A stretch of 63,662 bases of DNA, the filler included, from Stramenopiles sp. TOSAG23-6 (lineage: Eukaryota): NCBI GenBank assembly GCA_900128565.1. It is 7 parts of 7 records of this genome, joined end to end, with 100 filler letters (N's around TTAATTAATTAA, not from the genome) between each part and the next. Parts side by side here need not be neighbours in the genome. Positions count along the whole stretch, not along the records: positions 1 to 12,060 come from LT636220.1; 6 more parts are not named here. The stretch is one strand, 5' to 3'. The notes beneath the pieces are model-generated. The model was given only the letters and a program-made list of their open reading frames with translations. It had not been told where the DNA came from and searched no databases. This document shows, one piece after another, positions 4,761-62,257 of this stretch. Each line of letters begins with the position of its first letter. Within the stretch, counting starts at the first letter, position 1. The translations under genes were made by a program, and so were the position numbers.

Positions 4761-6275
4761 ATGATGAAATTAGCTTCCCTTCATAGAAGCTTAGCAGTAG
4801 TGGTGATTCTCCATAAAATTTTAAGCATTTCAGCTATGAACTGGAATTGCGGAGGGTTGTGCGGCGAGCGCCGCCGCCGTAGTCAAAAGAATTCTTCCCG
4901 GATGGTCACTGAGGTGTCATTGCCTTTGTCCCGGATGGTCACTGAGGTGTCATCGCCTTTGTCCCGGGTGGTCATACCTAACACACTACCCGACACACTC
5001 GAAAAGATTCGGAATATGGAACAAATTGGAGTGGGTGCATCGGGAACGGTATATGCAGACCACAACAATAATTACGCATGGAAAGTCTTTGCTGACCCTA
5101 TCAGAGCTAGAGATGAAATAGAACTTGGATTCGCCGCCAGTGTATGTCCCAATGTTGCCCGGATACTTGCTACAATCGGTATTTGCAAAAGCTCACCGAC
5201 TCCAGGTGGGAAAAGAAAAGAAACAACTTGCATAGTGCTAACAGACGGTTCCTCAAAGACGTGTCCAGAAGGTGAGAGTTGCGAAGTTCAAGCTATCGCA
5301 CTTCCACTTTATACTCAGGGGGATTTGTTTGAGGAATATGCCAAGATTTATTTTAAGTATCAGAAAATGGGTGGCCGAAGATTTGAAAACTTGAGAGAAA
5401 TTCAAAGAGTTGAGTTTGGAATTGAAGTACTTGAAATGGTCAAACTGCTACAATATGTTCAGCAAGCTTTGGAGTGTATGCATAAACCACCGGTACAAAT
5501 ATCACACAATGACGTGAAAATAGAAAATTTCCTTCTTCGAACAAACAAGGAAGGGAGACTAGAACTTGATATCGCGGATTTCGGAGGTGCTTGCAAGTTT
5601 GGTGATGGTTGTAGAACAACGTTCACAAGGGACTTCGTTCCACCAGAAATGGTTGGAACTCTACGAAGGGGTGTATTTGTTGCAAGAGATTCATATGACA
5701 AGTGGTCCTTAGCAGCATCTTTTTTGAATATTCTCACAGTAATTCGGTTAAATAACTTTGCGGAAACCCTTTACAATGCTGCCATCAACAAAGATGCCGG
5801 ACTTGATTCAGGACTTAATTCTCTCCTAGAAAACTGGGTGCAGGCGTTTGGCGATAGCTTNAAAGATATTGGTAANTTTCTTCTGGAGACAATATTTGAA
5901 ACTGGTTTAAAGAGGGAAGAATCTAATAGAGCATGGCTTCCATTTGCTGATATNAAACTTAAAATTGATCAACATATTGAAAACATGAATGAACATATTC
6001 AAAATCTGAGAGAAGCAAACGAATTAGCTCTTATAACACTGGAAGATGCAAATCAACCTGCTATATCAATTCAAACAGTTTCGGGTCCTCACTCGGAAGC
6101 ATTAGCATCTGCAGCAGATCATCCCGAATCATCAATTCAAACAGTTTCGGGTCCTCACTCGGAAGCATTAGCATCTGCAGCGGATCAACCCGATTTGTTT
6201 ATTACACTTGCATCTAAATTGCTTCACGACATGATGCCTGCCACGGTTAACCATGAACAAATATTTATAAAATAA
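4761..6275 (+). CDS. Protein kinase-like protein with hydrophobic N-terminus (possible signal peptide)
   Basis: IGVGASGTV, AWK, HNDVKIEN and DFG motifs; intronless; C-terminal 23-aa direct repeat. Confidence 0.8.
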   Translation: MMKLASLHRSLAVVVILHKILSISAMNWNCGGLCGERRRRSQKNSSRMVTEVSLPLSRMVTEVSSPLSRVVIPNTLPDTLEKIRNMEQIGVGASGTVYADHNNNYAWKVFADPIRARDEIELGFAASVCPNVARILATIGICKSSPTPGGKRKETTCIVLTDGSSKTCPEGESCEVQAIALPLYTQGDLFEEYAKIYFKYQKMGGRRFENLREIQRVEFGIEVLEMVKLLQYVQQALECMHKPPVQISHNDVKIENFLLRTNKEGRLELDIADFGGACKFGDGCRTTFTRDFVPPEMVGTLRRGVFVARDSYDKWSLAASFLNILTVIRLNNFAETLYNAAINKDAGLDSGLNSLLENWVQAFGDSXKDIGXFLLETIFETGLKREESNRAWLPFADXKLKIDQHIENMNEHIQNLREANELALITLEDANQPAISIQTVSGPHSEALASAADHPESSIQTVSGPHSEALASAADQPDLFITLASKLLHDMMPATVNHEQIFIK

Positions 6276-6356
6276 TGAGGCTATGCAAGACGTTTAATAT
6301 TTTTATAAAAAGAAAATAAATTTTTATACAGATCATCAACTTATTCAAAAAAAAGT

Positions 6357-7605
6357 TTATCCTAGACTAAGATGCTGTAGACTTTTATCCGTGACCCAAA
6401 TATTCATACCATATTTCGTATAACCCTCTTTTATAATAGGCTGAGCTTCATGAACTGTCAAAGGATCAGCTTCATTGGGTCGTTTATTTCTTACATCCAA
6501 ATTTGAAAAAAGCAAAGCCTTACGAGCAATAGGTTGCACGGCTAAAATTGGTTCAAGTGCGGGAAATGCAGTGCAGCCACCAGCCTCAGGGGGTAAATCG
6601 TTGAGATAAACAAAAAAAGTAGCCAAACGTCGAGGAGGTACTATTGGACCACATTGGCCATTTTCATCAAGGGAGCAGCAATCATATATCGTAAAAAAAT
6701 ATATTGTTTTTTTGTTAGGTACAACATTTCGTATGAAAAAAAAATTGAAATTCATGATGAAAACATACATGATGTACGTTAAACTTTTGACCCATTGTGT
6801 AGCTTACAATTTGCAATGGTTCAACATTTTGAGGTGGTACACCTAATATCTCTGCTGCTCGTCTTTCAACTGCTCGAACAACTGTGTCTTGGCCTTTTTT
6901 AAGAAAAATAAACCGAGATGTTCTGTCACTACTCACATGAGAAGCTAAATCATCATCTTCCGTAAAGGAACTTTGAAATCTATTTTTTTCATTCGTAATA
7001 ATGGAACGCAAGTGTAACAACTCCGATTCTGTCAAGAACTCATCAATTGTAAATATATTTGGATTTTCTGGTGCTGGTTTTCTAGACACCAAAGATAGCG
7101 TTCTCCGCTTTGCTCGTTGAGTTAATGGTTGGGGTCGAGAAAATAAGTTGATAAATCTAAAAGGAAGGGGTGGAGTTTTAGCAGATGATCGTCGAAGATG
7201 CGCTCGATGATTTGGTTTTTCTATAGTACTATTTGGTGTCTTACCTTGTGAGTCTGGTGTGTCTCGAGGTCTTATAGACGAAATTACTACACTTGTGTCT
7301 TCACTTCCATCATCAAAAAGTAAGTTATATGTCCAATTACCCTCTGACAAATAATTAATATCAATGATTGTAGCTGGAAAATATGCCTTACCGTATTCTT
7401 CACTTTCCCCACAGTTCCACATTGCCTCTACAAAATCACCAACTGAAAAGGTACTCGGAGGAGTGTGCATTTCTGAGGTTTTGTTTGTAATAATGCTTTC
7501 GCTTGAAAACGAAACACGTCGGCGCTTTGCGTTGCTCTCTAAAACAGTACTAATAACATTCTCTTTGATGGACCCAATATCATTTTCACTTTGAATATGC
7601 GACAT
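6357..7605 (-). CDS. Prolyl 4-hydroxylase-like 2OG-Fe(II) dioxygenase with N-terminal Tudor-like domain (intron 6684-6768, GT-AT)
   Basis: RTS, EPLQIVSY, HH|D motif restored across the intron, RLATFFVYLND, GGCTAFP, HEAQP, KYGMNIW. Confidence 0.88.
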
Positions 7606-8056
7606 TCCTTATTTATTTGGTACTGCAAAATGTGACATAATACATATTAAAAATTAACATTTTTCATTCCTTCTTCCACACGAAAACAACAGAAGTCGCA
7701 ATTACGACATTACTAATTAGGGTTAGCGTTAGCGTTAGGGTTAACAAAACTACTGTGATAATAGTAGGTTTAGAAAAGGCGACACAGTTTAATGGACAGA
7801 TCGGCACAATTTTGAGATATATTCCAGACAAGGAAAGATATGTTGTTAAAGTTGACTATGCTAGTGGGCATAAAAAACTACTACTAAAAAGAAGCAATAT
7901 TGTACAAAAGAGTTAAAATTGTGATGGAAGTATGTTTTATATTTTTGTGCAAGTACATCTCGACAAGCCTACTAATAAAAATTTGTATAAAAAGAATTAA
8001 ATCTTTCCTAATGTAAAAGAAAAAAAAAACAACAATCTTTCCTGATTCATTCATAA

Positions 8057-10992
8057 TCAAAATAAACCAACAATTTTTCCTGATTCATAATCAAAATCAA
8101 TATCATAAAAACCTGGTCTCGTTGGAAGTCCAGGTATCGTCATGATCTTTCCTAATAAAGGAAATACAAAACCAGCTCCAACATTACACCTTATTTCTTT
8201 CACAGCTACGGTAAATCCTGTGGGAACTCCTTTCTTCTTTGGATGTATTGTAAAAGAAACTTGTGAAAAAAAAATTGTTAGGTACAAATTTTTCATATAA
8301 AAAAAAAAAAAAAAATTCTGAAAAAAAAAACATACATCTGTGCTTAAACTCAAATGTGTTTTTGCTATACATATCGGAAATTTCCCCCACCCTTGCTCTT
8401 CATAATATTTTATCGTTTCAGCAACATTATCAGGTATTTCTACACCATCAGCTCCATAAATTTCTCTCGCAATGACTGAAATTTTTTCTTTAATGGGCAT
8501 ACATTGTGAAAAATATTTTTTGTTTGTTGGAAAAATCGTTAGGTACAAAATTTTTATAAAAAAAAAATCAGATTTCAAAAAATTAAAACGTACATGCACA
8601 AAGGATACAAAAATTTGAATCCTGGACTGTTTTGATTCGTTGATCGAGACATTGCACAAACAGACGCAACGGCAAGGCCTAAGTCAGTTGCACCTGCGCC
8701 CCCTGTATTTTGAAAAAATATTTCAAAAAAAAACTAAAATTTGTTAGGTACAAAATTTTTATAAAAAAAAATTTCGAATTTTTTGTAAAAAAAAAAAATA
8801 AAACACACCTTGTGCCCAATGATTTGAAAGAATTGCATGTCCTGCTCCTGCTTCTAAGGCAGCTTTACACACAATATCAATTTCAGAGTTAGTATCAGTC
8901 GCAAATTTATTTACAGCCACAACAGGTGTTATCCCAAATTTCAAAGCACTTCGAATTTTTAGTGTCAAAAAATAATTAACAAAAAAAAAATTGTTAATGT
9001 ATGAATTTTTTTTTAAAAAATTAGAAAAAAAAAAATTTTAGGTACGAAATTTTCTATGAAAAAAAAATAAATTTAAAATTCATGATGTTATACAACGTAC
9101 ATGATGCTGAAGATTACAAACTCCTGCTCGAAGCAAGTCCAAATTTTCTTCTGTGTATTGCGATGCAAGAGGGGTACCGGGTTTCACAGGTGGGCCACCA
9201 CCATGCATTTTCAATGCTCTCACAGTGGCTACAATGACAGCACAGTTTGGGATTAGTCCGGATTGACGACATTTTATATTGAAAAATTTTTCCATTCCAA
9301 TATCAGCACCAAAGCCACATATTGTGAAAAAATATTCAAAAAAAAAATTGAAATTTTTTAGGTACGAAATTTCGTACGAAAAAAAAAATAAATTTGAAAT
9401 TGAAGAGAACAACGTACGCACTCAGTGACACAAAATCCTTCGTCGCCGACTAATTTCAACGCTACTTGATCTGCAACAATGGAAGAGTTGCCATGAGCAA
9501 TATTTGCAAATGGACCAGCATGAACGAAAACATTTGTTGGACAAAATATTTCAAAAAAAAATTAAATTTTGTTAGGTACAAAATTTCGTATGAAAAAAAA
9601 AACCCAAAAAAAATGATTATGGAAATATACAGGTGTTCCTTCTAACGTTTGCATCAATGTTGGCTTGATCGCTTCTGCCATCAATACTGTTAGAGCTCCA
9701 CCAGTACCTAAATCATCAGCTGTGATAGGTTCACCAGATCTAGACTGGCCAATCACCATTCGACCTAATCGATCTCTCATGTCTTCTACTATATTGTGAA
9801 AAAAAAAAAGTTTTGGAAAAAAAATCGTTAGGTACAAAATTTCGTACGAAAAAAATTAAATTTAAAATGAATTGTGAAAACGTACATGATGTGGTCAATG
9901 CCAATATAGCCATAATTTCGCTAGCTACAGTTATATCGAATCCTGTTTGACGAGGTGTACCTTTTTTTTCCGTCGGAGACTCACCGACAGTTATAGATCG
10001 AAGATGTCGATCACAAGTATCAATGACTCTTTTCCAAGTGACTGAATTCGGGTCAATATGTCTTGTGAGAAAATATATTTTTTTTAATTTGTTAGGTACA
10101 AAATTTCGTATGAATTGTTTTAAATGTTTTTAAAATGTTTATAAAATGTTTTTTACATTTTTTTTACGAAAAAACAAATAATACATTACAATTAAAATTA
10201 ATAATGAAAATATACATTCAAACGAGAAAAAGATGTGATTTCATCAGGTGTTAAATTATCAGGATGAGTTTTTTCTATACCAAGTTTTTTTAATCTTTTC
10301 AGCATTACAGGAGAAAAATGACGAGAACCATCTTTTTTTTTTGGACATAAANGTCGAAACAATGCTGCATCCGATTGAGTATCCTCGTGGTACATTCGAG
10401 TATCGATCGCAGCAGCAAGTAAATTATTGGCAGCTGTAATGGCGTGTATGTCACCAGTCAAATGTAGATTAAATTCCTCCATAGGAATAACCTGCGCATA
10501 GCCACCACCCGCAGCACCGCCCTTGATACCAAATGTTGGTCCTTGTGAGGGCTGTCGAAGACAACAAAATACGCGCTTGCCCAGATGTGCGCCTAATGCT
10601 TGACAAATACCAACAGTAGTAGTGCTTTTACCTTCACCAAGTGGTGTTGGATTGATCCCAGCAACTACAACGTAATTACCTTCAGGAGAATCTTTCAATC
10701 TGTCACGAATATCAAGACTCACTTTTGCTTTATATCGGCCATACTGCTCAATTTCACAGGGAAGAATTCCGGCCTCACGAGCGACTTGATTAATGTGAAG
10801 AGGTGTCACACTTTGGGATACTTCAATATCTGAAGGGACAGGCTCAAGGCAACGAAGTTCTTCCCTCTGGGAGACTTCATTATTCTCTGCTCCAAAACAT
10901 AAAGCGAACTCAATTAACTTTTCCCGATCTTCGTAAACACCAGCTTCTTTTGCTAAACGGGAAATATTTCCAACTTGACTCATCATTTGCAA
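8057..10992 (-). CDS. FTHFS: Formate-tetrahydrofolate ligase, 9 exons (introns 10058-10215, 9789-9885, 9532-9630, 9317-9417, 8957-9100, 8703-8808, 8499-8593, 8243-8335)
   Basis: [69 protein letters not shown]; conserved motifs restored at each junction. Confidence 0.96.
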
Positions 10993-11344
10993 GGATTCTC
11001 TTTCTTTGTAATATTTTTTTGAAAAAATGCAATGCTTTATCTTTTATTTAGACCGAATAGATGATCATTCAAGGTTGATGATGATGATTTATTATTTCAC
11101 TCTCTCTCTACTCTCTTCTCTCTCTTGTCGTAATTGTGTTGACATCGTTGACATCAATCAAATGCGCACGTTTTCCTCATTTTTCGTGTTTAATTTTTTT
11201 CAAACAAACATTTCGAAATTCGAATGATGCTCCTACAAATACTAGCTAGGAACACTCTGAAAAAATAAATTGAAATAGACCTTACGCGAGAAAAGGGTTT
11301 ATCGTTGCTGCATAGTTCTTATTTGAGCCTATAGCACTGATAAA

Positions 11345-12007
11345 ATGAGCATTCTAGCAATAATAAATAGTTTGATGCTTGTCGCTTGCATCGCTGCCGC
11401 GGATTGTGGTAAAAATTCACATTCTGAAGGTGACTCTTGCGTATGCGACATTGGTTTTACCGCAGGTCCTGGTGGAACTTGTGTCCTCGTGAAAATGGAC
11501 GAAACACCGGCCAACAAATGTCCTCAGAATTCGTATGAAAAAGATGGTGGATGTACGTGTAATGATGGTTTTCAACCCAATACAAATGGAACAGGTTGCG
11601 AGAAAGTTCCTGTCAATCAATGCCCTGAAAATACCCACCAAACAAAAGAAGGATGTGCGTGTAACGACGGTTTCGTACCGAGCTCTGACGGTAAAAAGTG
11701 TGTACCTCATTCACCGTGTCCTGAAAATTCGCACAAAGATGGAGATGGATGTATATGCAATGATGGTCATAAACCAAATAAAGATGGTACTGGTTGTGAA
11801 AAACATGTTGAAAGCACTCATAGCTGTCCCGAGAATGCAATTCCAGATACCGCGTCACCCGGTACCTGTGTGTGTAAGGAAGGATTTGGTCCTAACTCTG
11901 ACGGCAGTGCGTGTGTGGTAGTAGAGGGCGTGGAATCAGTGGATAGCCCACTTTTATTTACTCTTCCCCTCGATATTGATGGCCGTTCCGTAGAACTGTT
12001 TTACCAT
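11345..12007 (+). CDS. Secreted cysteine-rich EGF-like repeat protein (3'-truncated; intron starts at 12008)
   Basis: Signal-like N-terminus; five CPxNS...CxCxxG(F/H)...C repeats; contig ends inside an intron. Confidence 0.8.
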
Positions 12008-12060
12008 GTATGTTTTATTTTTTTTTCAATTTCGAATTTATTTTTCATACGAAATTTTGT

Positions 12061-12160
12061 NNNNNNNNNNNNNNNNNNNNNNNNNNNNNNNNNNNNNNNN
12101 NNNNTTAATTAATTAANNNNNNNNNNNNNNNNNNNNNNNNNNNNNNNNNNNNNNNNNNNN
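12061..12160. other. Artificial contig spacer
   Basis: N-run with central TTAATTAATTAA (stops in all six frames), 100 nt. Confidence 0.98.
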
Positions 12161-14688: not shown

Positions 14689-17477
14689 TTATCCTTCAGC
14701 ATTAATTCCTTCCCATAATTGAGAATGAAAGAAACCACCATTACCTTTCGTTGTTTTCCGTGCAATCATTGCAGTTCTCTTCAAACTCTGAACTAATTCA
14801 ACATTTGCTTGTAAAAACGAAGGTTCATGGTAATGAATCTTGTGCTTTGCACATAAAGCACGTGTTAATTTTCGTGCTTCACGAAGATTATGTCGAGGTA
14901 AACGTGGCCATAAATGATGTTCAATTTGAAATTGTAAACCTCCATGAAACCAATCCATTGCAGGTGAACACGAAACATTCATTGTTGTTGCAACTTGCAT
15001 TTTAAACCATTCATCACTATCATCATTATATGCCTGACCATGATACGTTTTCATTGTAAAATGGGAAATACATATTTGTACATGTAATATACCAGCTAAT
15101 CCATGGGATATTAAAAGAAATGCAACACGTTGGAGCCATGTATCACCACTACTATATACCAAAGGAAGCATCCAACCATGGAAAAACAATAATGAAAGAA
15201 AAGACCAAAACCTCCATGCGACTTTTTCTTTTGTATCACATAGCAAAATAAATGATTGAATGTATAAATTGAATCGTGCAACTCCCATTATAGGATAGAA
15301 CAAGTAATGTTGATACGATACAAGAAACCGTGCAATAGAATCCATTATCATATGTTTTTGATGATATGTTGACCAAAATCCTTTTGTATCATCAAATATC
15401 TTTTCATCAACTGCAAATACTGGTAAATGTTGAATATCTGGATCATTTTCAACAGAATTACATACAACATGATGTACATTATGTGACCGTTTCCACCAAT
15501 TTAATCCAATTCCACCAGATGTATTTAATAAACACAAACCTGCCCATTGATCACGTTCACGTTCATGTGAAATACTAGAGTGTCCACAATCATGACCAAC
15601 AAAAGCAATTTGTTGCCAAAAACAAGCTAAAAAAAAAGCACCTACCAGTGAGGTATGAAATCCGTCACAAAATAGAGTAAAATATATAACTAAACTAAAT
15701 AACATTATTAACCAAATGGATAATATAATGTAATAACTCGCATTTGTTTCAAATAATCCTCTGCGTAAAAGAATTTGACGAATTTCACGATGTTCCTTTG
15801 CAAATTCAGACTCTTTATAATCAACTATTTCACCAATGTAATAAGAAGGAAGGAGTTTTTCATATACTCTTGCTGGATGTATTGTAAATATATATATATA
15901 TGTATATTTTTGTAAGTTAAAATGTTTTGTGAGGTACGCAATTTCGTACGAAATTGTTTTTTTTTTGAGATTTAAAATTTGAAATGAAGACAACATACAT
16001 GATAATTAGCAAATGCATCAGTTACATCTTTACCACCTAAATTTACCAATGGAAGCCAACCTCCAGGATGATTATCAATATATTTTGTAATATCATACGC
16101 TTTACCTTCAATACATATCCATGTAATTTTGAATAATATTTCAAACATTTGATATTTTTTTGTTAGGTACAATTTTTTTTTTTTTTTTTTTTAAATTTAA
16201 ATTTTTTTTTTGTATAAAAAAAACGGACATAAACTCTCACGAGAATTATGTTTAGCTACTTCAGCCATAGTTATTCCTTTTCCATTTCGACTAGCAATGA
16301 ATGCTTTTGCTGCTTCAACTTTAGCTTTTCTATAAAACACAGATGGCGCTAAAACCGCTTTGCCTTCTTCTTCTCTCCATACCATTTTAGGGTTAGGGTT
16401 AATACCACCATCAACTTTTGAAATTCCATTCCTATTATTTTTATGATTTTTTTCATTTTGAATTTTATTTAATCGAATTTCTTGACGTTTTTGTTCTTCC
16501 ACAGTAGAAAAGACACTACCACTATTCTTATCATGACTCTTTGCAAGTCGTGCACTAACAGTTGCAGTCCGTTGAGTCGTTCTCTTCAAATCTAATTGTG
16601 TAAGGCAAATCTCTCCAATGACACAAACAATTAATCCTCCACATCCACCAACTAATGTAGCAGTTAGCATAGGTAAACGGGCAGCAGTACAAAACGAATG
16701 CGACGAAGAAATCAATAATAACCAAGAAACAGTTTCTACGGCAGATCTAATAGTAAATAATTGCCAATTATCAGCGCAATGCACTAGTCGATTATGAACA
16801 ATGGATCCAATGACACTTGTTGGTGTAGATAATAAGCATAGCTGACTCAAAGTGACTAAACAAACTGCCGCTAAAAATGCTTGTATTACAGGATTAATAC
16901 CGATACGATTTGTCATTGCAAAGAACAAAACACCAACTAGACACCACTGTTCAGGGGCGAATAAACCTTGAAAACGCCACTTTTGAACTAATGACGAACT
17001 ACACAGGAATTTTTGTGCCGAAGTACAAATTGAAGTCAAAATGTCACCTGTGACTAGTAAGGCAATCCCACTAGAAGCACCACCAATGTATGTTAAACAA
17101 AACGAATTATATACACTATGAAGTTTTACAGAGACATATATAAAGGACGACAACTCAACAAACGACCGTAGTGCGTTGTTCACCCAATTGTATTGCATTC
17201 TAGTTACCCTATCCAGAATAATATGAGCTGGATGAGCACAAATACCAAGATACTCAAACATGATACCAATTAACATTAAGAGAAGACAAGTGAAGAGAAC
17301 TGTACCAATTGTTTCAAAATCATTGGGAGAGGTAAGTGTAGTTGGAAGAGCCAAGATGGCACAAACAGGGCCAAAGACCTGCGGACGACTTTGCAGCAAT
17401 TCAGTCAAGTTCGATTTTCCAGTAGCAGAGGCTTCAGCCTTTACCGGAGTAGAATGCGCACTCTTTACTTTTGCCAT
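14689..17477 (-). CDS. Cytochrome b5-fused front-end (delta6/delta8 sphingolipid-type) desaturase with long N-terminal membrane extension (introns 16121-16228, 15877-15998; both GT-AT)
   Basis: HPGG haem motif; HDCGH, HNVHH and QIEHH His boxes; KHNSRESL-W and ANYH|P restored across introns. Confidence 0.92.
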
Positions 17478-24215: not shown

Positions 24216-24315
24216 NNNNNNNNNNNNNNNNNNNNNNNNNNNNNNNNNNNNNNNNNNNNTTAATTAATTAANNNNNNNNNNNNNNNNNNNNNNNNNNNNN
24301 NNNNNNNNNNNNNNN
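24216..24315. other. Artificial contig spacer
   Basis: N-run with TTAATTAATTAA. Confidence 0.98.
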
Positions 24316-24366: not shown

Positions 24367-24488
24367 GTGACGCATTTGAATTAAATGTAGGCTGTCCACA
24401 GCGTGTTGCTCGAAAGAAAAAAATTGGTGCATATTTAATGCGAGATCCCGAACGTTTGATTTCACTTGTAAGTTTTCAAAATTGAATG

Positions 24489-24527
<39 letters not shown>

Positions 24528-25658
24528 TTTTTTACCTAAAAATTTTTTTTTGTACCTAACAATATTTTTTTAAGATTGTATATTTTTCCATACTACATGT
24601 ACAATCTGTTTCAAGAGCTCTGACTATACCTATATTTGTAAAGATACGAATTCTACCAAATATCCGAGATAGTATTGCATTAGCACAAATGTTGGAACAT
24701 GCAGGTGCTAGTGTGATTACTGTTCATGTATGTTTTATTTTTTTTTTTTTTTACTATGAATTTTTTTTTTTGAAAATATTGTACCTAACAAATTTAAGTT
24801 TTTTTTTTTGAAATATTTTTCCAAAATACATGGTCGGATTTTACGACCTGGAAAGGGAGGTAAAAAAGGTGGTGATATCGCTGCAGATTGGTATGCTATA
24901 AAACGAATTCGTGAATCGGTTGATATACCAGTGATATCTAATGGCAATGTTCGGTCATTGGATGATGCGTTAGCTAGTATTGATTATACAGGATGTCATG
25001 GGTGCATGTCTGCATGTGGTCTCTTGGCCAATCCAGCTATATTTTCAGAAAAAAACACGAATATAACAAATATAACAAATATAAAAAATACAACAAATAT
25101 AAAAAGAATACATTCAAAATTGGAATATACAATACCAACTGAGATATCTGGAGTTCCCATTTTGCCATTAAAAGAACGTTTATCATTATGTATAAGATGT
25201 ATGTTTTATTTTTTTTTATTTGAAGTTTTTTTTCTTACGAAATTTTGTACCTAACAATTTTTTTTTTTGAAATATTTTTTCAAAATACATACTTAATCCT
25301 ATGTAAAAAATATCCAGATGATGCTGATAAACGTTGTATTAGTAAACATTTATTTGCGATAATGAAGAATAGACAATGTACCACAAATAAATCTTGTGAA
25401 GTTGATGAAGATGATGATTGTACGTCGACAAGAAATAATTTTATATATATTTTTGATACAATTCATTCTAGTATACATCAATTCCAAAACAAAAAGAATC
25501 CAAAAGAGGACAAAAAAGGACAAAACAAAAACGAAATTCCAGAAGCAAATCAGTGGGAATCATCATTAGGTAGTAGCAATAGTTGTATGTCGATTGGTTT
25601 TCAATCAGATTTGATACATTTACAGAAAATATTTGAGAATTTTTTGAGTGAACTGTGA
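24367..25658 (+). CDS. tRNA-dihydrouridine synthase (DUS1-like), 5'-truncated (introns 24468-24598, 24728-24831, 25199-25290; all GT-AT)
   Basis: LNVGCPQ, GAYLM, VKIR, TVH|GR, ADW, IPVISNGNV motifs. Confidence 0.9.
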
Positions 25659-35639: not shown

Positions 35640-36319
35640 ATGGGAATAAAATCGCTTCTTCAAGTGCTTGACTCTGCTTCAGAACGTCGGCATGTAAGTG
35701 AATATGTTAAAACTAAAAGTAGACCAACCCTTGCGGTCGTTGATACTATGTGCTGGTTACATCGTGCATGTTATAGTTGTGCCACAGAACTTGCTCTAGG
35801 TAAACCAACTGACCGATTTGTTCATTATTTTCTTCGTAGGGTGAAATTGTTGCGTTTAGCTGGTGTTGAGTGTGTTATGATTTGTGATGGTGCTAGTCTC
35901 CCTTCAAAGAGGGATACACAAATTGAGCGTCGAAAACTTAAGAGTGAACAACGTTTGAAGGGAATCGCCCTTTTAGAGCAATCCAAGCAAACCAACGATA
36001 ACACAAAAAAGAAAGCTCTTTTGAAATCAGCTTACGAGGCCTTTCAAAAGTCTATTACAATTACTCCGAGAATCCTTAAGACTCTCTTTGATACACTTTC
36101 TGCTCACGGAGTTCGTCATATATGTACGTTTTCATCATGAATTTATTAATTTATTATTTTTTTGGTACGAAATTTTGTACCTAACAAAAAAATCAAATGT
36201 CTGAAATATTTTTTCACATCATATTTGCACCATATGAAGCAGATCCACAGTTGGCGTACCACACTCTCGATATTGTCTCACAACAATGGAAAGCTGATTT
36301 CATTATTACTGAAGACTCA
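35640..36319 (+). CDS. EXO1: Exonuclease 1, N-terminal part (intron 36124-36224, GT-AT; truncated in next intron from 36320)
   Basis: MGIKSLL, DTMCWLHRACYSCA, DGASLPSK, APYEADPQLAY, ITEDS. Confidence 0.92.
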
Positions 36320-36370: not shown

Positions 36371-36470
36371 NNNNNNNNNNNNNNNNNNNNNNNNNNNNNN
36401 NNNNNNNNNNNNNNTTAATTAATTAANNNNNNNNNNNNNNNNNNNNNNNNNNNNNNNNNNNNNNNNNNNN
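36371..36470. other. Artificial contig spacer
   Basis: N-run with TTAATTAATTAA. Confidence 0.98.
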
Positions 36471-36856: not shown

Positions 36857-39444
36857 TTTTCTTGACTTGTAGATCGAACTAATGACATACCTCTATTTAC
36901 TTTACCATTTTGAGATTCCTTTTCTTTGATGCCACTAATTGGCTGTACTGCTTTTTCTTGAGATTGCTCTGTACGACCAAATGTGAAATCAGATACAGAC
37001 TTATTAAGAGCATGTTTTTCTGGTTTTTCTGGCTTAGAAGAAATCGATTCAGCAAAACTATTCTTTTTGACACTATCTAATTTTGGAGCATCACTAAATT
37101 TAAAATTAGATATGATTGAGGATTGATCTTCCAACAAAGTCGCATTTGTTACATGGATCACTGGAGCATTTGAAAATGTAAATGAATCCTCTGAATTTGA
37201 TGAATTTGATGTTGACATATTTAGAAAAGATGATGATTTGACATGTGAATTCGAATGTATCGTCGTTTTTTCATGTTTTGTATTTTTTTCAAAACTGAAT
37301 GAAAATTCAGGTTTTTTCTTTTCGTCGACAGTTTGAGTAAAAGTAAATGAAGAATTTTTTCTTGTTGCGGCGGCGGAGGGTACAGATGATTGATCATTTC
37401 TATTATTATTATCATTTTGAATTTCATATTTATCAAATACCTCTTTTGTATTATCCAATACCGGAGGTTTTGAAATCGAATCACTTGAACGTTGTTTCAT
37501 ATTAGGCAATGAAAAAGTTAATTTTTTATTCGTTTTCACACCATCTACAACATTTTCAACTACCTCTGGAGAATAAAATAAAGGTTTTGAAACAGTATTA
37601 AAATTCGAATGTACATTTAAATGTACATTTATACCATTTTTCGTACCTAACGAATTTCGAATTTGCTGAGACTTTGCCTGTTCCGTTTTTCTTCGAATAG
37701 GAGCATGTATTTTGGAAAAATATTTCGAAAAAAAAAAACTAAGATTTGTTAGGTACAAAATTTTCAAAAAAAAAAAAATTAAATTCGAAATTAAAAAAAA
37801 ATCGTTAGGTACAAAATGTACTATGAAAAATAAATTCAAAATTGAACAAAAAATAAAACATACAGGTGTTGCAGTATTAGCGTGAATATTTTTAATTTCC
37901 AATGAAACATTTGGTAATTTTTCCACTTCTTTTACATCATTTTTGGAATTATTTCGTGTTTTGCCTTGTCTGACTTTAATAACAGAACCTGTAACACCTT
38001 TAATGCGTTTTTCATTAGAGGGCGGAACAGGAGCTCTTTTGCTACGTGTCACTTCAAGTGGTGTTGACATTTGCTGTAAAGCGGAAAGAATTGAGTCTCT
38101 GATCTTCATTGCTTCATTGGCTTTTTTGGCTTTTGTACTACCACCAACCCTACCAATAGAATTCGATTTCAAATTATTCGTTGCTTCTGTATTGATATCA
38201 CTCAAATTTCGTATACCAGGAGTTGTTCCAGTTAGTAAAGAAGAAGGTCGAGATCGAGATTTATTTTTTAATGAAGAGTAGCGATATTTCGTATGAGATT
38301 TTCTACTTGAACTAAGTAAAGCTTGTTCGGACCAAAAATTTTCATGACCAAATCCTGTTTTTTTTACTGAACTTAATCTACTCTTTGAAATAGTATTTTT
38401 ATGCAGTCTTTGCAATTTAAACGCACGGGGACGAATTTCAGGCGAATTTGCAAAATCAAAATCACCATATTTTGTTGCTGTTTTTTTTGTAAATCTTTCA
38501 CGTTTCCCTCCTACTGTTCTATCCTTAGGGTTGGGGTTATTATTGATATTTTTACGATTTGTTGATACATCTACATTTTCATCATTACAATTTGAATTAT
38601 TATTTAAATTATTATTTAAATTATTATTTGAATTTGAGCCAAACACAAACATCTCATTTGAATGTACATTTGAATGTACATTTGAATGTACATTTGAATG
38701 TACATTTAGATTATTTTGATTATTTCGTGCATGAGATGAAACTGTACCAAACATACGAGGTAAAGTATTTTCAGCATATTGATGACGTCTTTCCCCAGTC
38801 ATCAAACCAGGATAATATCCCGGTACCATAGCAGCAGCTGGAGTGTTAAATCTATTTGTTGAAGTGTTTGAAACGACCATTGGAGTCATCGAAATATCCA
38901 TACCTATAACTCCTCCATTTGTATCGGATACAGCACCATATCTATTAGGGTTAGTCGGTTCAATATACCCCCGATGATACCCTATCGTAGGGTTAGGGTT
39001 CATACTAACACCAAACGGTGTTGCATAGCGATACGATATTCTATGTTGTTGTTGTTGTTGTTGTTGTTGGCATTGGTGGTGGAGGTGTGGCGCAGGAGCA
39101 GGTGTCGCTAAACACATTGGTGTCAATAAACGATGTCCAGGCGAAGTTTGTGTATTAACTTGTTGTCGGATCCTCGAGTCATCTCTATGAGTAAATCTAC
39201 GTATTACATCAACTGGGGTAAGATGTTGCTGAGGATTCCCATTTGATATTATTTGATTATTCGGAGCAACGCGCGTAAAAGATGGACGTACTAAAGGAGT
39301 TTTTTTTGTATGTAATCCTACGGGTTTCGTACCTAACGAATTTCCAATTTGCTGAGTGTCATCATTTTCATTTATATGGATATTTTGTTGAGGGTCAGGG
39401 TTTAAGGTCTGAATATTCTGTTGATGCTCTTGAGATTGTGATAT

Positions 39445-41626: not shown

Positions 41627-44278
41627 ATGGGAGAACCAAAATCTTTTCCAGATGAACCATTAAGTGTACAAACTTTGGCCCTTCATATAGTAAAAGAGCA
41701 TTTTGGTCCATTAGTGGAAACTGTTTGCAAGGGGTTGGCACAGTGCGGACTCATCTCCTTGACTGCATTGTTGGGAAAGTTGCGTCGGTGGACACCGTCT
41801 TGGGATCGAAAAAATGTTGTTCATATACTAAGTTTATTGTTACAGCATAATTTATTGGATGTTCAACAGCGAGCGCCGTATAAAGATGCTATGGGTGTAA
41901 TACAACACCCTCCAGTATTGTACGCATTCCGTTCTCGTTCTGCTGTGCATCGTTTGCGGTATGCAAAACTTCTCTACCACATAAAGAAACGGTTTGGTAC
42001 TGATGGGGAAATGCTATTATATAGACTTCTCTTTAATGGAAGAGCACAGGAGTCTCGGTTATGTGAAGAAGCATTTGAGTATCTTGATCGAGTAAAAAAC
42101 CTCAAAGTCGATTCTACTTCTGAGAAAGATGCAAATCTGAATTCTTCAACAGTAAAGAAAGAAATGAATGAAGATAACATCTCACAAGAAAGAGAAGACA
42201 GACTTTCCTCGTTACAGGATGTATTTCTTGAGATGGTATCAGAAGGGTATATCCAGCGTGTTGAACGTTTAGATCTCTTGAAAACAAAAATTTCTAAAGG
42301 AAAGAAAAAGAAAACAAATTCCAAATTGAAAAAAAAAGTGAAAAACTCAAAAAACTCAAAAACTAAAAAGAACTCAAAAACTAAAAAACGGTCAAAACGC
42401 AAACGTGCTCAAGGTCTTGGTGAAACCAGCTCGGATGAAGAGTCTTCTCGTAAAGCACCTAAAAAACGATCTCGAATGCAATTACGTGGTGTAAAAAAGG
42501 AAGATAATGATGACATGTATGTTTTAGTTTTTTTTCAATTTTTTGTCTACATTTTTTTTTTTTTTTATAGTAAATTTTGTACCTAACATTTTTTTTTTGG
42601 TACATTTTTAAATATTTTTCCAAAATACATGCTACAATCAAGTAGTGAAGTTGACCTAAGTAATATGATGGGGCTTTCTTCTACATCATCATCAAGTGGT
42701 CTATCAAGTGGTGAGTATATTTCTAAAACATCAACAAACACTACATTGAATGATTCACGGAGCAATGCAGATTCTTTTCAAGTCTGTCTTCCCCGTTTTA
42801 CTCGTGAATTTAGTATGTTTACTCCCAACTATAAACCCTAACCCTAATTCCATATTGATAAAAAAAAAAAAAAAAAAAAAATTTCATACGAAATTTTGTA
42901 CCTAACAAATTTTTACTAAAAAAAAATTGAAATATTTTTCCAAAAAAAACATTTTTTTTTTCATACGAAATTTTGTACCTAACAAATTTTTACTAAAATT
43001 TTTTTTTTTGAAATATTTTTCTACAATAAATGAGAAATTGCATTAAAAAGTTGCACAAAAGAATCTGAAGGTAAACTCTCTTCAAAAGTAGTTGGTTATA
43101 TATTAGCTATGCGTAATGCTCAAATTGCAGAATCTGATCGAAACTTTTGTGGTTCCCGCGGCTTTCAATTTGATGGTCGTAGTGTATTTGATTACATCAA
43201 GAATGAGAACCCTAACCCTAGTTGTACGAAAGGAAACCCTAACCCTAATTCTTTGGAATTCTTTGGTGAAGATTTTACATATCGAAAGTGTCTTCGTATC
43301 CTTGATTCTTTATCAAAAGGCCCTTATTCAATACTAGAGAAGGCATGTAGTTTTAGTGAAGATTCGTATGTTTTCATTTTTATACGAAATTCTGTACCTA
43401 ATGTTTTCATTTTTTTTTTTTAAATTTTTTTTAAAATTTGTTGTATACGAAATTCTGTACCTAACATTTTGTTTTTTTGTTTAAAATTTTCACAATTCAG
43501 GAAAGATAATGATCAATATTGTGGCGGAAATTTCTCATTTGAGTACAGACCTGCTTTAGATGCACTTATCAGAGATACAATAGAAGATATTATACTACAA
43601 AAATATGTATGTTTTATTTTTTTTAATTTTTTGTCTAAATTTATTTTTTCGTACGAAATTTTGTACCTAACAAATTTTCAAATTTTTTTTTGAAATATTT
43701 TTCTACAATATATGGTGTGCAGAGCAAACGTGTTTTCCGTTTACTTCTTGAATCTCATTATTTAGAAGTGAGAGAAATTAGTATGAAATCATTAATTGGT
43801 GTAAAAGAGACGCGTGCGATATTATTCCAATTATTCTCAGCTGGATTTTTGAAATTACAAGAAGTTCCTAAAAAATCTGATCATGAATGTTTTATTTTTT
43901 TTTTTTTTCCGGTAAAAAAAAAATCGAATTTTTTTTTTTTGAAAATTTTGTACCTAACAATTTTTTTTTTTATACAAAATTTTGAAATATTTTTCCAAAA
44001 TACATAGCCCACAATCAACTTTATATGTCTGGTCTATAGACCAAGCTCAGTTGATGATTCGTCTATCTGCTGATATTCATAAATCTATATTTAATTTACG
44101 AGTACGTAGACAACAGGAATGGGATTCAAATGAAGCACTAATTGAACGACACCAGCGACGATTAATATCAACTGCGAGAGATAAACAAAAATTTCTTCAT
44201 TTGGGTGGTATCCTTCGTCAATTAGATTCAAGTATACTACAATTGGATGATACTTTGATGCTTCTTGTTGATTTTTAA
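41627..44278 (+). CDS. POLR3C: RNA polymerase III subunit RPC3/RPC82, 6 exons (introns 42517-42630, 42813-43031, 43366-43500, 43607-43713, 43885-44005)
   Basis: EHFGPLVETV, LLLQHNL, RLRYAK, LLFNGR, KY|G..RVFRLL, LQEVPKKSDH|SPQSTLYVW, QLDDTLMLL. Confidence 0.9.
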
Positions 44279-48521: not shown

Positions 48522-48621
48522 NNNNNNNNNNNNNNNNNNNNNNNNNNNNNNNNNNNNNNNNNNNNTTAATTAATTAANNNNNNNNNNNNNNNNNNNNNNN
48601 NNNNNNNNNNNNNNNNNNNNN
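48522..48621. other. Artificial contig spacer
   Basis: N-run with TTAATTAATTAA. Confidence 0.98.
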
Positions 48622-50865: not shown

Positions 50866-50938
50866 ACCCGTCTAGCTCAGTTGGCAGAGCGCCAGACTCT
50901 TAATCTGGTGGTCGTGGGTTCGAGCCCCACGGTGGGTG
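50866..50938 (+). tRNA. tRNA-Lys (CTT)
   Basis: Acceptor stem ACCCGTC/GGTGGGT, D-arm TAGCTCAGTTGGCAGAGC, anticodon arm CCAGA-CTCTTAA-TCTGG, GGTTCGAGCC T-loop, followed by a T-run. Confidence 0.96.
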
Positions 50939-53367: not shown

Positions 53368-54297
53368 AATATAAAATTGATTATCTATAACAAAGATTTT
53401 ATTTTTTATTTGGGGTATTTGTACAATGTGTTTAATATTAAGTAGTAGTATTTGTTTGAAAACATGCTTATGAAATGTTTGCAAGAGTAAATTTTGCTTA
53501 GTATTCCGCTTCTGTTTACATACTGTATTTTATTTATTCTATAGATGGTGATTTTACTCACTAAAATGAAATGAGTAAATCTGGAATACATTTTAGTGAG
53601 TTTTAGTGAGTAAAATCATCATAATAGATCTAGGATAAATAAAATACAGTACTTATTTTTTTTTTTTCCAATTTGGTATACTTAGGGTTAGGGTTTTTTT
53701 TTGAAGGTAATCGTATAAAAAATCAAAAAATCATTAAAATTGTGACTCGTTGAACCAAGTCGAAGTTGACCGCCGTCTTCTTCTCTCTCTCTCTCTCTTC
53801 TCTCACTGTTTCTTTCTTTTTTTAAAGTAAACAGAGTACTTACATAGCGTCAATATCTCGCACAACATATTATTGTTTACTATACTATTTCTATACTGGC
53901 TTATTTCAGTGTTTTCATCACAATACAGCAATATTGTAGAACTGCTTCCAACGGTGCTGACATCATACAAAGTAAAATTTTTGAAAAGTACTATTGAAAT
54001 TCTTTCTAGTCAAATCATAGTCAATATATGCGTGTTGACAATACTATCAAATACAAACTGTATTATTGAGTTACCACACACAATTTTCAAAAAAGTACAA
54101 TGCCGAGGCTTAATCTCTCGGAGGAACAAGTTCGTGAAAACATGGAACGTTGGCATAATCTTCCTAGACTTACATTTAGTTTGACAAAGGCTCCCAACGA
54201 CTTTAATGTGAGAGATGGTTCTTCTTACAAGGAAGGTGTAATCATGTATGCCGGGACGTTTGTGTGGCTTGCATTGCTTTTAACAATCATTGGTTTT

Positions 54298-55174
54298 TGT
54301 GAAAATATTTCAGAAATTTTTTTAAAAAATTTTTTAAAATATTTTGTTAGGTATGAAATTTCGTACCAAAAAAAAAAAAAAATAAAAAAATAATAAAATG
54401 ATGAAAAATTTACGTACATATCGAACAGTATCAAACAAAAATGTTGAACTGTCAATATTTGTACCTAAATTATCCATATTAAAGATCGCATCTTTATGAA
54501 GTTTTTCTACATTTTGGAACAATCCTGTTACTATATCAGGGCTATTCTCTTGAGGTGTAGACTGTAGCATAGCTTTTGCTAATAATGCTTCAATATTTTC
54601 TAAACTTTCAAATAATGTGAAAAAATATTTTTTTTTTTTTTTTTTTTTAGGTACAGAATTTCGTATGAAAAAAAAAAATTTTTTTTTTTTTTTTTTTTTT
54701 TTTTGTTAGGTATGAAATTTTGTATTTTTTTTGTGGTTCAAAAAACACAAAAAAACACAAAAAAACAGGTTTTTTTTGAACAATTATAACAATTACGTCT
54801 TATTTGAAAACAATGTACAATGTAAAAATAAATACATTATAAAAGAATGATGAAAACGTACAGAGATAACAACAACAATTCATCCTTTTTTTTTTTGTAT
54901 TGTTGACATTTTGTTGTTGTCGATGGCAGCCAAGTTTTTTCCGTAACCATTTCGAATTTGATACTATGATCAACACAAAACCAATGATTGTTAAAAGCAA
55001 TGCAAGCCACACAAACGTCCCGGCATACATGATTACACCTTCCTTGTAAGAAGAACCATCTCTCACATTAAAGTCGTTGGGAGCCTTTGTCAAACTAAAT
55101 GTAAGTCTAGGAAGATTATGCCAACGTTCCATGTTTTCACGAACTTGTTCCTCCGAGAGATTAAGCCTCGGCAT
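54298..55174 (-). CDS. Tweety-like membrane protein, N-terminal exons (truncated; partial mirror 54100-54297)
   Basis: WHNLPRLTFSLTKAPNDFN...YKEGVIMYAG followed by a TM helix resembles the TTYH N-terminus; downstream exon structure unresolved. Confidence 0.55.
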
Positions 55175-55906
55175 TGTACTTTTTTGAAAATTGTGTGTGG
55201 TAACTCAATAATACAGTTTGTATTTGATAGTATTGTCAACACGCATATATTGACTATGATTTGACTAGAAAGAATTTCAATAGTACTTTTCAAAAATTTT
55301 ACTTTGTATGATGTCAGCACCGTTGGAAGCAGTTCTACAATATTGCTGTATTGTGATGAAAACACTGAAATAAGCCAGTATAGAAATAGTATAGTAAACA
55401 ATAATATGTTGTGCGAGATATTGACGCTATGTAAGTACTCTGTTTACTTTAAAAAAAGAAAGAAACAGTGAGAGAAGAGAGAGAGAGAGAGAAGAAGACG
55501 GCGGTCAACTTCGACTTGGTTCAACGAGTCACAATTTTAATGATTTTTTGATTTTTTATACGATTACCTTCAAAAAAAAACCCTAACCCTAAGTATACCA
55601 AATTGGAAAAAAAAAAAATAAGTACTGTATTTTATTTATCCTAGATCTATTATGATGATTTTACTCACTAAAACTCACTAAAATGTATTCCAGATTTACT
55701 CATTTCATTTTAGTGAGTAAAATCACCATCTATAGAATAAATAAAATACAGTATGTAAACAGAAGCGGAATACTAAGCAAAATTTACTCTTGCAAACATT
55801 TCATAAGCATGTTTTCAAACAAATACTACTACTTAATATTAAACACATTGTACAAATACCCCAAATAAAAAATAAAATCTTTGTTATAGATAATCAATTT
55901 TATATT

Positions 55907-58335: not shown

Positions 58336-58408
58336 CACCCACCGTGGGGCTCGAACCCACGACCACCAGATTAAGAGTCTGGCGCTCTGCCAACTGAGCT
58401 AGACGGGT
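58336..58408 (-). tRNA. tRNA-Lys (CTT), mirror copy
   Basis: Reverse complement of 50866..50938. Confidence 0.95.
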
Positions 58409-60652: not shown

Positions 60653-60752
60653 NNNNNNNNNNNNNNNNNNNNNNNNNNNNNNNNNNNNNNNNNNNNTTAA
60701 TTAATTAANNNNNNNNNNNNNNNNNNNNNNNNNNNNNNNNNNNNNNNNNNNN
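60653..60752. other. Artificial contig spacer
   Basis: N-run with TTAATTAATTAA. Confidence 0.98.
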
Positions 60753-62157: not shown

Positions 62158-62257
62158 NNNNNNNNNNNNNNNNNNNNNNNNNNNNNNNNNNNNNNNNNNN
62201 NTTAATTAATTAANNNNNNNNNNNNNNNNNNNNNNNNNNNNNNNNNNNNNNNNNNNN
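62158..62257. other. Artificial contig spacer
   Basis: N-run with TTAATTAATTAA. Confidence 0.98.

Follow-up and report, generated by a model that had tools for sequence, protein, structure and literature searches.

The AT..AC register is excluded at a 99-base FTHFS intron of Stramenopiles sp. TOSAG23-6, a probable member of an introner-like family with GT donors

We analysed a window of 63,662 nucleotides (filler included) from Stramenopiles sp. TOSAG23-6 (GenBank assembly GCA_900128565.1), in which seven contigs are joined end to end, adjoining contigs not necessarily being neighbours in the genome, and which is AT-rich (G+C of 0.24 to 0.41 over 2-kb intervals). The first contig carries on its minus strand a eukaryote-type formate-tetrahydrofolate ligase (FTHFS) gene with eight introns, here called A to H, and this work concerns the third of them, intron C, the 99 bases at 9532..9630. 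We show that an AT..AC register is excluded at intron C, with high confidence. In our estimate the probability is about 0.75 that these 99 bases are a spliceosomal-type intron of the FTHFS gene, one copy of an introner-like family, which is cut in front of a GTAYGT donor and whose 3' cut is spaced from a conserved 3' box.

The intron C junction in gene, RNA and protein

Four FTHFS exons matched Pfam PF01268 (E 6.4e-70, 1.8e-17, 2.3e-13 and 4.3e-19; 236.4, 63.2, 49.7 and 68.6 bits against a cut-off of 27), which establishes the identity of the host gene, and the exons also matched solved FTHFS chains. The eight introns are 93 to 158 nucleotides (nt) long and are all copies of one repeated family; when all of them are removed in the GT register, the spliced open reading frame (ORF) is continuous, with 678 amino acids up to the stop. 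Read along the minus strand (9630..9532), intron C follows the exon letters acacct, starts with GTATATTTCC, ends with TTTGTCCAACAAAT and is followed by gttttc, in agreement with the junction of the initial annotation (CCT before GTATAT, GTT after the intron) and with a length of 99 nt. That annotation held that moving both cuts by -2 would change the conserved TLEGTP into TLEGTH without producing AT-AC ends. When we recomputed this slide, it gave TLEGTH and the intron ends CT..AA; therefore AT..AC is excluded at intron C. The annotation overlooked, however, that intron C also slides by -1, +1 and +2 and that the +2 register reads AT..GT. Its claim that the intron excludes the AT-AC reading thus stands for AT..AC ends, which are impossible here, but not for an AT start: intron C alone does not rule out an AT start, since AT..GT fits.

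The skip is seen in RNA. Seawater poly(A) metatranscriptomes containing the FTHFS gene were found by a word-index search (share of words at most 0.19), and RNA contigs from four runs (X1 to X4) of three studies were aligned to positions 5955-12060 at a likeness of at least 90%; the joints and pieces described here are those among the matches listed. The joint at intron C (9529>9629) skips 99 nt with 3 ambiguous letters ('both' = 3), and its four allowed positions include 9532-9630. An X3 contig crosses this joint with 70 and 160 letters on the two sides and 0 other letters in either piece, and an X1 contig crosses it with 26 letters on the shorter side, below the 31-letter rule applied to joints. 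Both contigs, which come from runs of two studies, encode the product that keeps proline, and a complementary DNA (cDNA) encoding histidine at the junction codon was looked for and not found. There is no AG inside intron C, the next one lying 60 nt downstream. Because the intron holds no AG and the skip is seen in RNA, chance does not explain the open frame that removal of the 99 bases leaves. Introns A, B, D and G are likewise removed exactly from mature RNA, their joints also being present in the poly(A) metatranscriptome contigs.

The protein tells the same boundary. A library search with exon 1 listed 150 proteins, and 12 chosen from among those long enough to span the whole domain were aligned to the spliced product. 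As the initial annotation had proposed to check, the residue before junction C is proline in 12 of 12 homologues, and no gap occurs within 12 residues of the junction. On the Pfam FTHFS profile exon 3 ends at position 264 and exon 4 starts at 265; in eight of eight solved FTHFS chains, the last residue of exon 3 falls on n and the second residue of exon 4 on n+2, so that the two exons abut. At the other seven junctions none of the 12 homologues has an insertion or deletion exactly at the junction. Close by, two of the 12 carry an additional residue among the last positions ahead of junction G, a deletion of six residues in one homologue stops one residue short of junction F, and homologue P0134 diverges near the C-terminus.

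A skip in assembled RNA need not in principle come from splicing, and a template switch of the reverse transcriptase, an assembly artefact, elimination of DNA or transcripts of an intron-less allele would be other sources. The ends of intron C do share 3 letters, and the evidence consists only of low-depth assembled contigs. However, the same joints recur in runs from two studies, single contigs cross two successive joints (C and B in X3 record 14, D and C in X1 record 3), joints B and E share no letters, and all eight removals restore a protein colinear with its homologues. The introns moreover carry a donor, a CTAAC box and a T tract, which are splicing signals, and a 3-letter repeat is far below the 11/12 similarity that flags reverse-transcriptase artefacts in the available part of a Physarum study (bioRxiv 10.1101/2020.10.12.336362). 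A skip without splicing is, in our judgement, scarcely credible.

The register of the other FTHFS introns

The introns confirmed in RNA allow different slides. Their possible 5' dinucleotides are AT, TG or GT for A, GT for B, TG, GT, TA or AT for C, GT or TA for D, and AT, TG, GT or TA for G. The intersection of these sets is GT, which is the sole 5' dinucleotide common to the five RNA-confirmed FTHFS introns, and the sets of the homology-placed introns E (GT..AA only), F and H also contain GT. Joint B (9788>9886) leaves no letter ambiguous ('both' = 0) and has shorter sides of 77 letters in X1, 70 in X2 and 22 in X3. At intron D, the pieces 9137-9315 and 9417-9529 are contiguous in X1 record 3, with 0 other letters in the junction-side piece, and an AT located 2 nt upstream of the used 3' site is left unused. 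With GT fixed, the 3' ends from A to H are AT, AG, AT, GT, AA, AG, AT and AT. A GT register throughout the family is likely, and rests on B, which allows GT..AG only, on D, which allows GT..GT or TA..TG, and on E, which by homology allows GT..AA only. The slidable copies presumably use this same register, as we infer from their homology with copies that cannot slide. Two further junctions adduced in the initial annotation read as it had stated: intron G (8499-8593) becomes AT..GT after a -2 slide, and the intron at 24468-24598, in a tRNA-dihydrouridine synthase-like (Dus-like) gene, has a GTAAGT donor after CTT and the end CTACAT.

The intron family and its splice signals

Members of the family share a GTAYGTTTT donor, a TGTACCTAAC box that often follows a short palindrome, a T tract, and a 3' box CA(C/A)AAT with four bases after it. 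Allowing at most one mismatch, the core box matched 68 times in the window against 14.5 expected, and none of 100 shuffles reached 68. Junctions were placed by a donor pattern, which requires G[TC], combined with a weight matrix for the 3' end that had been trained on the eight FTHFS introns; this procedure replaced a brute-force enumeration of ORF-compatible donor/acceptor pairs, which was far too permissive. A copy was accepted if at least 37 codons were open on each side in the joined frame. Among 49 core-box matches, 8 lacked the donor motif, 13 failed and 28 passed, which gave 25 distinct ORF-compatible introns. These sit in FTHFS, in the Dus-like gene and in others, that is, in many copies in unrelated genes, as in an introner family.

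Donors of the 25 copies read G at +1 in 25, T at +2 in 25, A at +3 in 24, G at +5 in 22 and T at +6 in 25. Their 3' ends are AT in 19, AG in 4, AA in 1 and GT in 1; 24 of the 25 copies have A at -2, the base at -1 is T in 20 copies, G in 4 and A in 1, and positions -9 to -4 are conserved. AT stands directly before GT in 16 of the 25, and the consensus ends ATGTAT and ATACAT are inverted repeats (by inspection), while intron C itself has neither the AT pair resembling a target duplication nor the inverted ends. For the 17 copies outside FTHFS the GT start was partly built into the search, so that these counts describe the family and do not prove its register. Four introns of 131 to 219 nt contain two core boxes, as tandem or nested copies (42813-43031, 43366-43500, 37705-37863 and 24468-24598). 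For the last of these, the flanking exons abut between residues 134 and 135 of human DUS2 (4wfs_A), as extrapolated by length from weak matches with E values of 0.048 and 0.0018.

We compared these introns with the two known types. The initial annotation had reported no U12 donor RTATCCTT at any junction, and this proved right: the word matches 7 times in the window against 3.96 expected (8 of 100 shuffles reach 7), never at a junction. The match nearest to a junction, an exact GTATCCTT at 8601-8608 on the minus strand, is exonic, 8 nt upstream of the donor of intron G, and is read through by the RNA contig of X2 record 7, so that this U12-like word is not used. None of the 25 donors is an exact RTATCCTT, the mismatches being 2 in 15 copies, 3 in 7 and 4 in 3. 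The start of intron C, GTATATTT, is 2 mismatches away from [G/A]TATCCTT and does not qualify as a U12 donor. The donor mismatches include +5/+6, where the family reads GT, not CC. The branch box TTCCTT[G/A]AC, sought within the final 45 nt of each of the 25 copies, is at best 2 mismatches away (3 copies), followed by 3 (21 copies) and 4 (1 copy). U12-type termini are AT-AC or GT-AG, and the RNA product at intron C allows only TG..AA, GT..AT, TA..TG or AT..GT. Judged by its motifs, the family of intron C would not be U12-type, the U12 donor and the branch box both failing. An Rfam scan found no small nuclear RNA genes in the window, only two tRNA matches.

GTAYGT donors, CTAAC boxes and T tracts are signals of major-type introns, the comparison being with a yeast-like consensus. 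A U2-type donor (GT start, GTRNGT-like) was found across the 25 copies, one further copy reading GA. The TGTACCTAAC box, which holds CTAAC and is present in every copy by selection, precedes a T tract and is a putative branch site; in single-box copies the CTAAC box lies 31 to 47 nt from the 3' end, and in intron E this distance is 81 nt. What departs from the U2 type is the 3' AG, intron C ending in AT.

Removal in the GT..AT register might still be the work of a minor (U12-type-like) or hybrid spliceosome that tolerates non-AG ends and chooses its 3' site by the distance from the branch. As far as the available parts of the sources go, GT-AT is a known rare class among minor-type introns (7 of 66 in Table 2 of PMC1557818), and in Physarum it makes up 17% of the non-canonical introns, 71% of those being classed as U12-type (bioRxiv 10.1101/2020.10.12.336362). 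A variable last dinucleotide at a fixed spacing resembles the distance-based choice of the minor spliceosome, the GTATGTTT donors of 15 of the 25 copies share 6 of 8 letters with RTATCCTT, and several copies have a TTCCAAAAT box 4 nt from the 3' end. Against this, +5 and +6 of the donor read GT rather than CC in 22 and 25 of the 25 copies, no copy comes closer than 2 mismatches to TTCCTTRAC, and the conserved CTAAC box, at the distances given above, is followed by a long T tract, as in major-type introns. If the 3' box served as the branch site, the branch A would be only about 6 nt from the cut. We consider removal by a minor or hybrid spliceosome unlikely.

Another account would make the family a mixed one, with AT-flanked copies being AT..AC introns and only degenerate ones such as intron C having shifted to GT. 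Besides the frequent AT before GT, it can draw on the 10 of 25 copies in which exact AT..AC is allowed, on the copy at 43885-44005, which permits AT..AC and not GT, and on the inverted repeats of the consensus ends, ATGTAT...ATACAT. Yet the RNA shows introns C and D, which have the same donors without the AT flank, spliced at GT, and B is likewise spliced at GT. In six AT-flanked copies that lack an ACAT end (6684-6768, G, E, B, 36124-36224 and 43607-43713) a -2 slide yields AT..AT or AT..GT or is impossible. The AT before GT is, moreover, ancestral coding sequence: the homologues conserve the Asp or Asn codon whose end it forms at introns A and H. It is simpler to assume a single machinery that acts at one homologous site, and we regard a mixed family as very unlikely.

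Several points weigh against our preferred reading of a GT-cut, introner-like family. Firstly, 10 of the 25 copies (11 with donor 61408) are compatible with AT..AC, and for these cDNA does not discriminate between the registers; the statement that GT fits all copies is partly circular for the 17 of 25 placed by the G[TC] donor pattern and the FTHFS-trained matrix. Secondly, RNA depth is low (2 to 5.4 per contig, with 1 to 3 contigs per joint), a single contig carries the joint of intron D, and the matches listed include no RNA piece for introns E, F and H, missing cover on parts of the FTHFS gene or a missing listed joint at these three introns being evidence neither way. Thirdly, the RNA evidence is made of assembled contigs and not of reads, to which lariats and 5' ends are invisible, and RNA of an intron-less strain would show the same joints. 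Lastly, the copy at 43885-44005 reads GA where the other donors read GT, and GT does not fit there; a copy at about 48670 reads GC at the donor, its 3' end being lost in an assembly gap. The GA and GC copies could reflect assembly errors, or they could be dead or carry donor variants that are tolerated.

Other rules for the 3' site were tried and rejected. A canonical GT-AG alternative, with an in-frame AG within 30 nt, exists in 13 of 25 copies, nearly always downstream and deleting residues, and there is none at intron C. Pairing of the two intron ends does not account for the 3' site, since the ends of B, C and D are not complementary (by inspection), yet these introns are spliced. A fixed distance from the TACCTAAC box also fails, because the spacing differs among single-box copies (31 to 47 nt) and reaches 81 nt in intron E.

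Run X4, which is not poly(A)-selected, gave intron-family contigs over 8607-10238 at summed depths in the thousands, with low exon cover. This abundant intron-family sequence is unspliced RNA, excised introns or DNA. The X4 joints that link different intron copies (shorter sides of at most 30 letters, depth in thousands) were set aside as repeat cross-matches.

The contig at 48622-60652 (12,031 bases) is its own reverse complement except for a central part (54298-54976), and the two tRNA matches within it are mirrored, at 50866-50938 (+) and 58336-58408 (-). It looks like an inverted-duplication chimera from assembly or amplification, and the family copies that it contains are not to be counted twice. 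Internal telomere-like repeats, of two TTAGGG or CCCTAA units, occur at 16387-16398, 42836-42847, 43237-43248, 53682-53693 and 55581-55592 and also at about 7720-7750, some of them inside or beside intron-family copies. Divergent from FTHFS, on the plus strand at 11346-12060, is a gene with a signal-peptide-like start followed by repeated cysteine-rich modules, which reaches the contig end inside another family intron. Coordinates are collected in Table 1.

Table 1. Positions of the FTHFS gene, its introns, further family copies and contig joins in the window; slide registers are given as first and last dinucleotides.
Feature	Position	Strand	Description
FTHFS gene, eukaryote-type	8057..10986 (10986..8057 along minus)	-	9 exons, 8 introns (A-H), first contig
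Intron A	10058..10215	-	158 nt; AT..AC, TG..CA, GT..AT; X2 record 9 pieces 9983-10057 and 10216-10291
Intron B	9789..9885	-	97 nt; GT..AG only, no slide; placed by RNA and slide set
Intron C (intron 3 of 8)	9532..9630	-	99 nt, GTATAT...CAACAAAT; TG..AA, GT..AT, TA..TG, AT..GT
Core box TGTACCTAA(C) in intron C	9572..9580	-	branch-site-like (holds CTAAC), ends 40 nt before 3' junction
Intron D	9317..9417	-	101 nt; GT..GT or TA..TG; joint 9417 to 9315 in X1 record 3
Intron E	8957..9100	-	144 nt; GT..AA only; placed by homology, no gap at junction in 12/12 homologues
Intron F	8703..8808	-	106 nt; GT..AG (also AG..AC, GG..CA, TG..GG); placed by homology
Intron G	8499..8593	-	95 nt; GT..AT, AT..GT, TG..TA, TA..TG; X2 record 7 pieces 8400-8497 and 8593-8678
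Intron H	8243..8335	-	93 nt; GT..AT, TG..CA, AT..AC; placed by homology
Intron of Dus-like gene	24468..24598	+	GTAAGT...CTACAT; GT..AT fits, AT..AC does not
GA-donor family copy	43885..44005	+	GA..AT, also AT..AC, TG..CA; ORF-compatible, 82 and 90 open codons
Contig joins	12061-12160, 24216-24315, 36371-36470, 48522-48621, 60653-60752, 62158-62257		44 N, 12-base all-frame stop linker, 44 N

A candidate mechanism, related systems and significance

As a mechanism we propose that the pre-mRNA would be cut in front of the conserved GTAYGT donor, and a second time at a fixed spacing after the 3' box CA(C/A)AAT and its four bases, so that the last two intron bases would usually be AT and AG would not be required. 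The cuts would be made by the major (U2-type) spliceosome, whose control of the last intron base would be less strict; from the motifs, U2-type splicing with a relaxed 3' end appears to be the best mechanism. The conserved A at -2 next to a free -1 position would fit a spliceosome in which contact with the -2 A persists and the last G is no longer checked. The AT before GT and the AT at the 3' end may be the two copies of a duplicated two-base insertion target, in which case a GT..AT cut would remove the element together with one copy of AT and restore the original coding sequence. The chances seem to us evenly balanced that the major spliceosome of this organism works without a last-G requirement, its 3' cut set by spacing, A kept at -2 and T, G or A accepted at -1, GT-AT then being the dominant intron class of the genome. 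For the tunicate Fritillaria borealis, Henriet et al. are said to have described in 2019 numerous non-canonical U2-type introns, partly transposon-derived, that are handled by the major spliceosome; those introns reportedly vary at both ends without retaining a GT donor, unlike the introns described here.

The closest described case, on the available part of PMC7789003, is that of the non-canonical introner elements of the dinoflagellate parasite Amoebophrya, also a repeated family of non-GT-AG, RNA-confirmed introns in a marine protist; the intron ends bear inverted repeats, and short direct repeats over the exon/intron borders let the borders slide. According to the same portion of that source, the Amoebophrya introns have no dinucleotide signature, U1 was undetected and the borders stay undefined, whereas the family described here has a conserved GTAYGT donor (G at +1 in 25 of 25) together with a CTAAC box and a T tract, and its non-slidable copies fix the register. 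Like the transposon-derived introners covered in the accessible part of PMC12130899, the present family comprises many near-identical short introns in unrelated genes, with a border repeat like a target-site duplication that would let splicing restore the host sequence. The introners of Aureococcus differ in having canonical splice motifs, as PMC7789003 states in its available part, while here AG is missing from the 3' end of 21 of the 25 copies. Non-canonical U12-type introns of human, mouse and Physarum resemble ours in their GT-AT termini and variable last dinucleotide; in what is available of PMC1557818 and bioRxiv 10.1101/2020.10.12.336362 they are, however, rare exceptions that carry an RTATCCTT donor and, near the 3' end, a TTCCTTRAC or TTTGA branch box, whereas in the present family most copies are GT-AT and neither U12 motif is matched.

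In the literature searched, subscription journals being outside its coverage, we found neither a description of GT-AT as a dominant intron class nor any work on GT-AT introners, and the marine stramenopile genome papers examined make no mention of unusual splicing or splice-site types. An AG at the 3' end of introns is near-universal, and the check on it is among the most conserved rules of gene expression. The choice between GT..AT and AT..AC decides the class of these introns, AT-AC being the expansion of a known class with a precedent in Physarum; the register test removes this main ordinary reading and shows that gene finders demanding AG will mis-model the genes of this organism. If a GT-AT majority with GT-GT and GT-AA also in use is true, its spliceosome has relaxed the AG check. 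Introns B, C and D of the FTHFS gene offer RNA-supported test cases for position-based choice of the 3' splice site.

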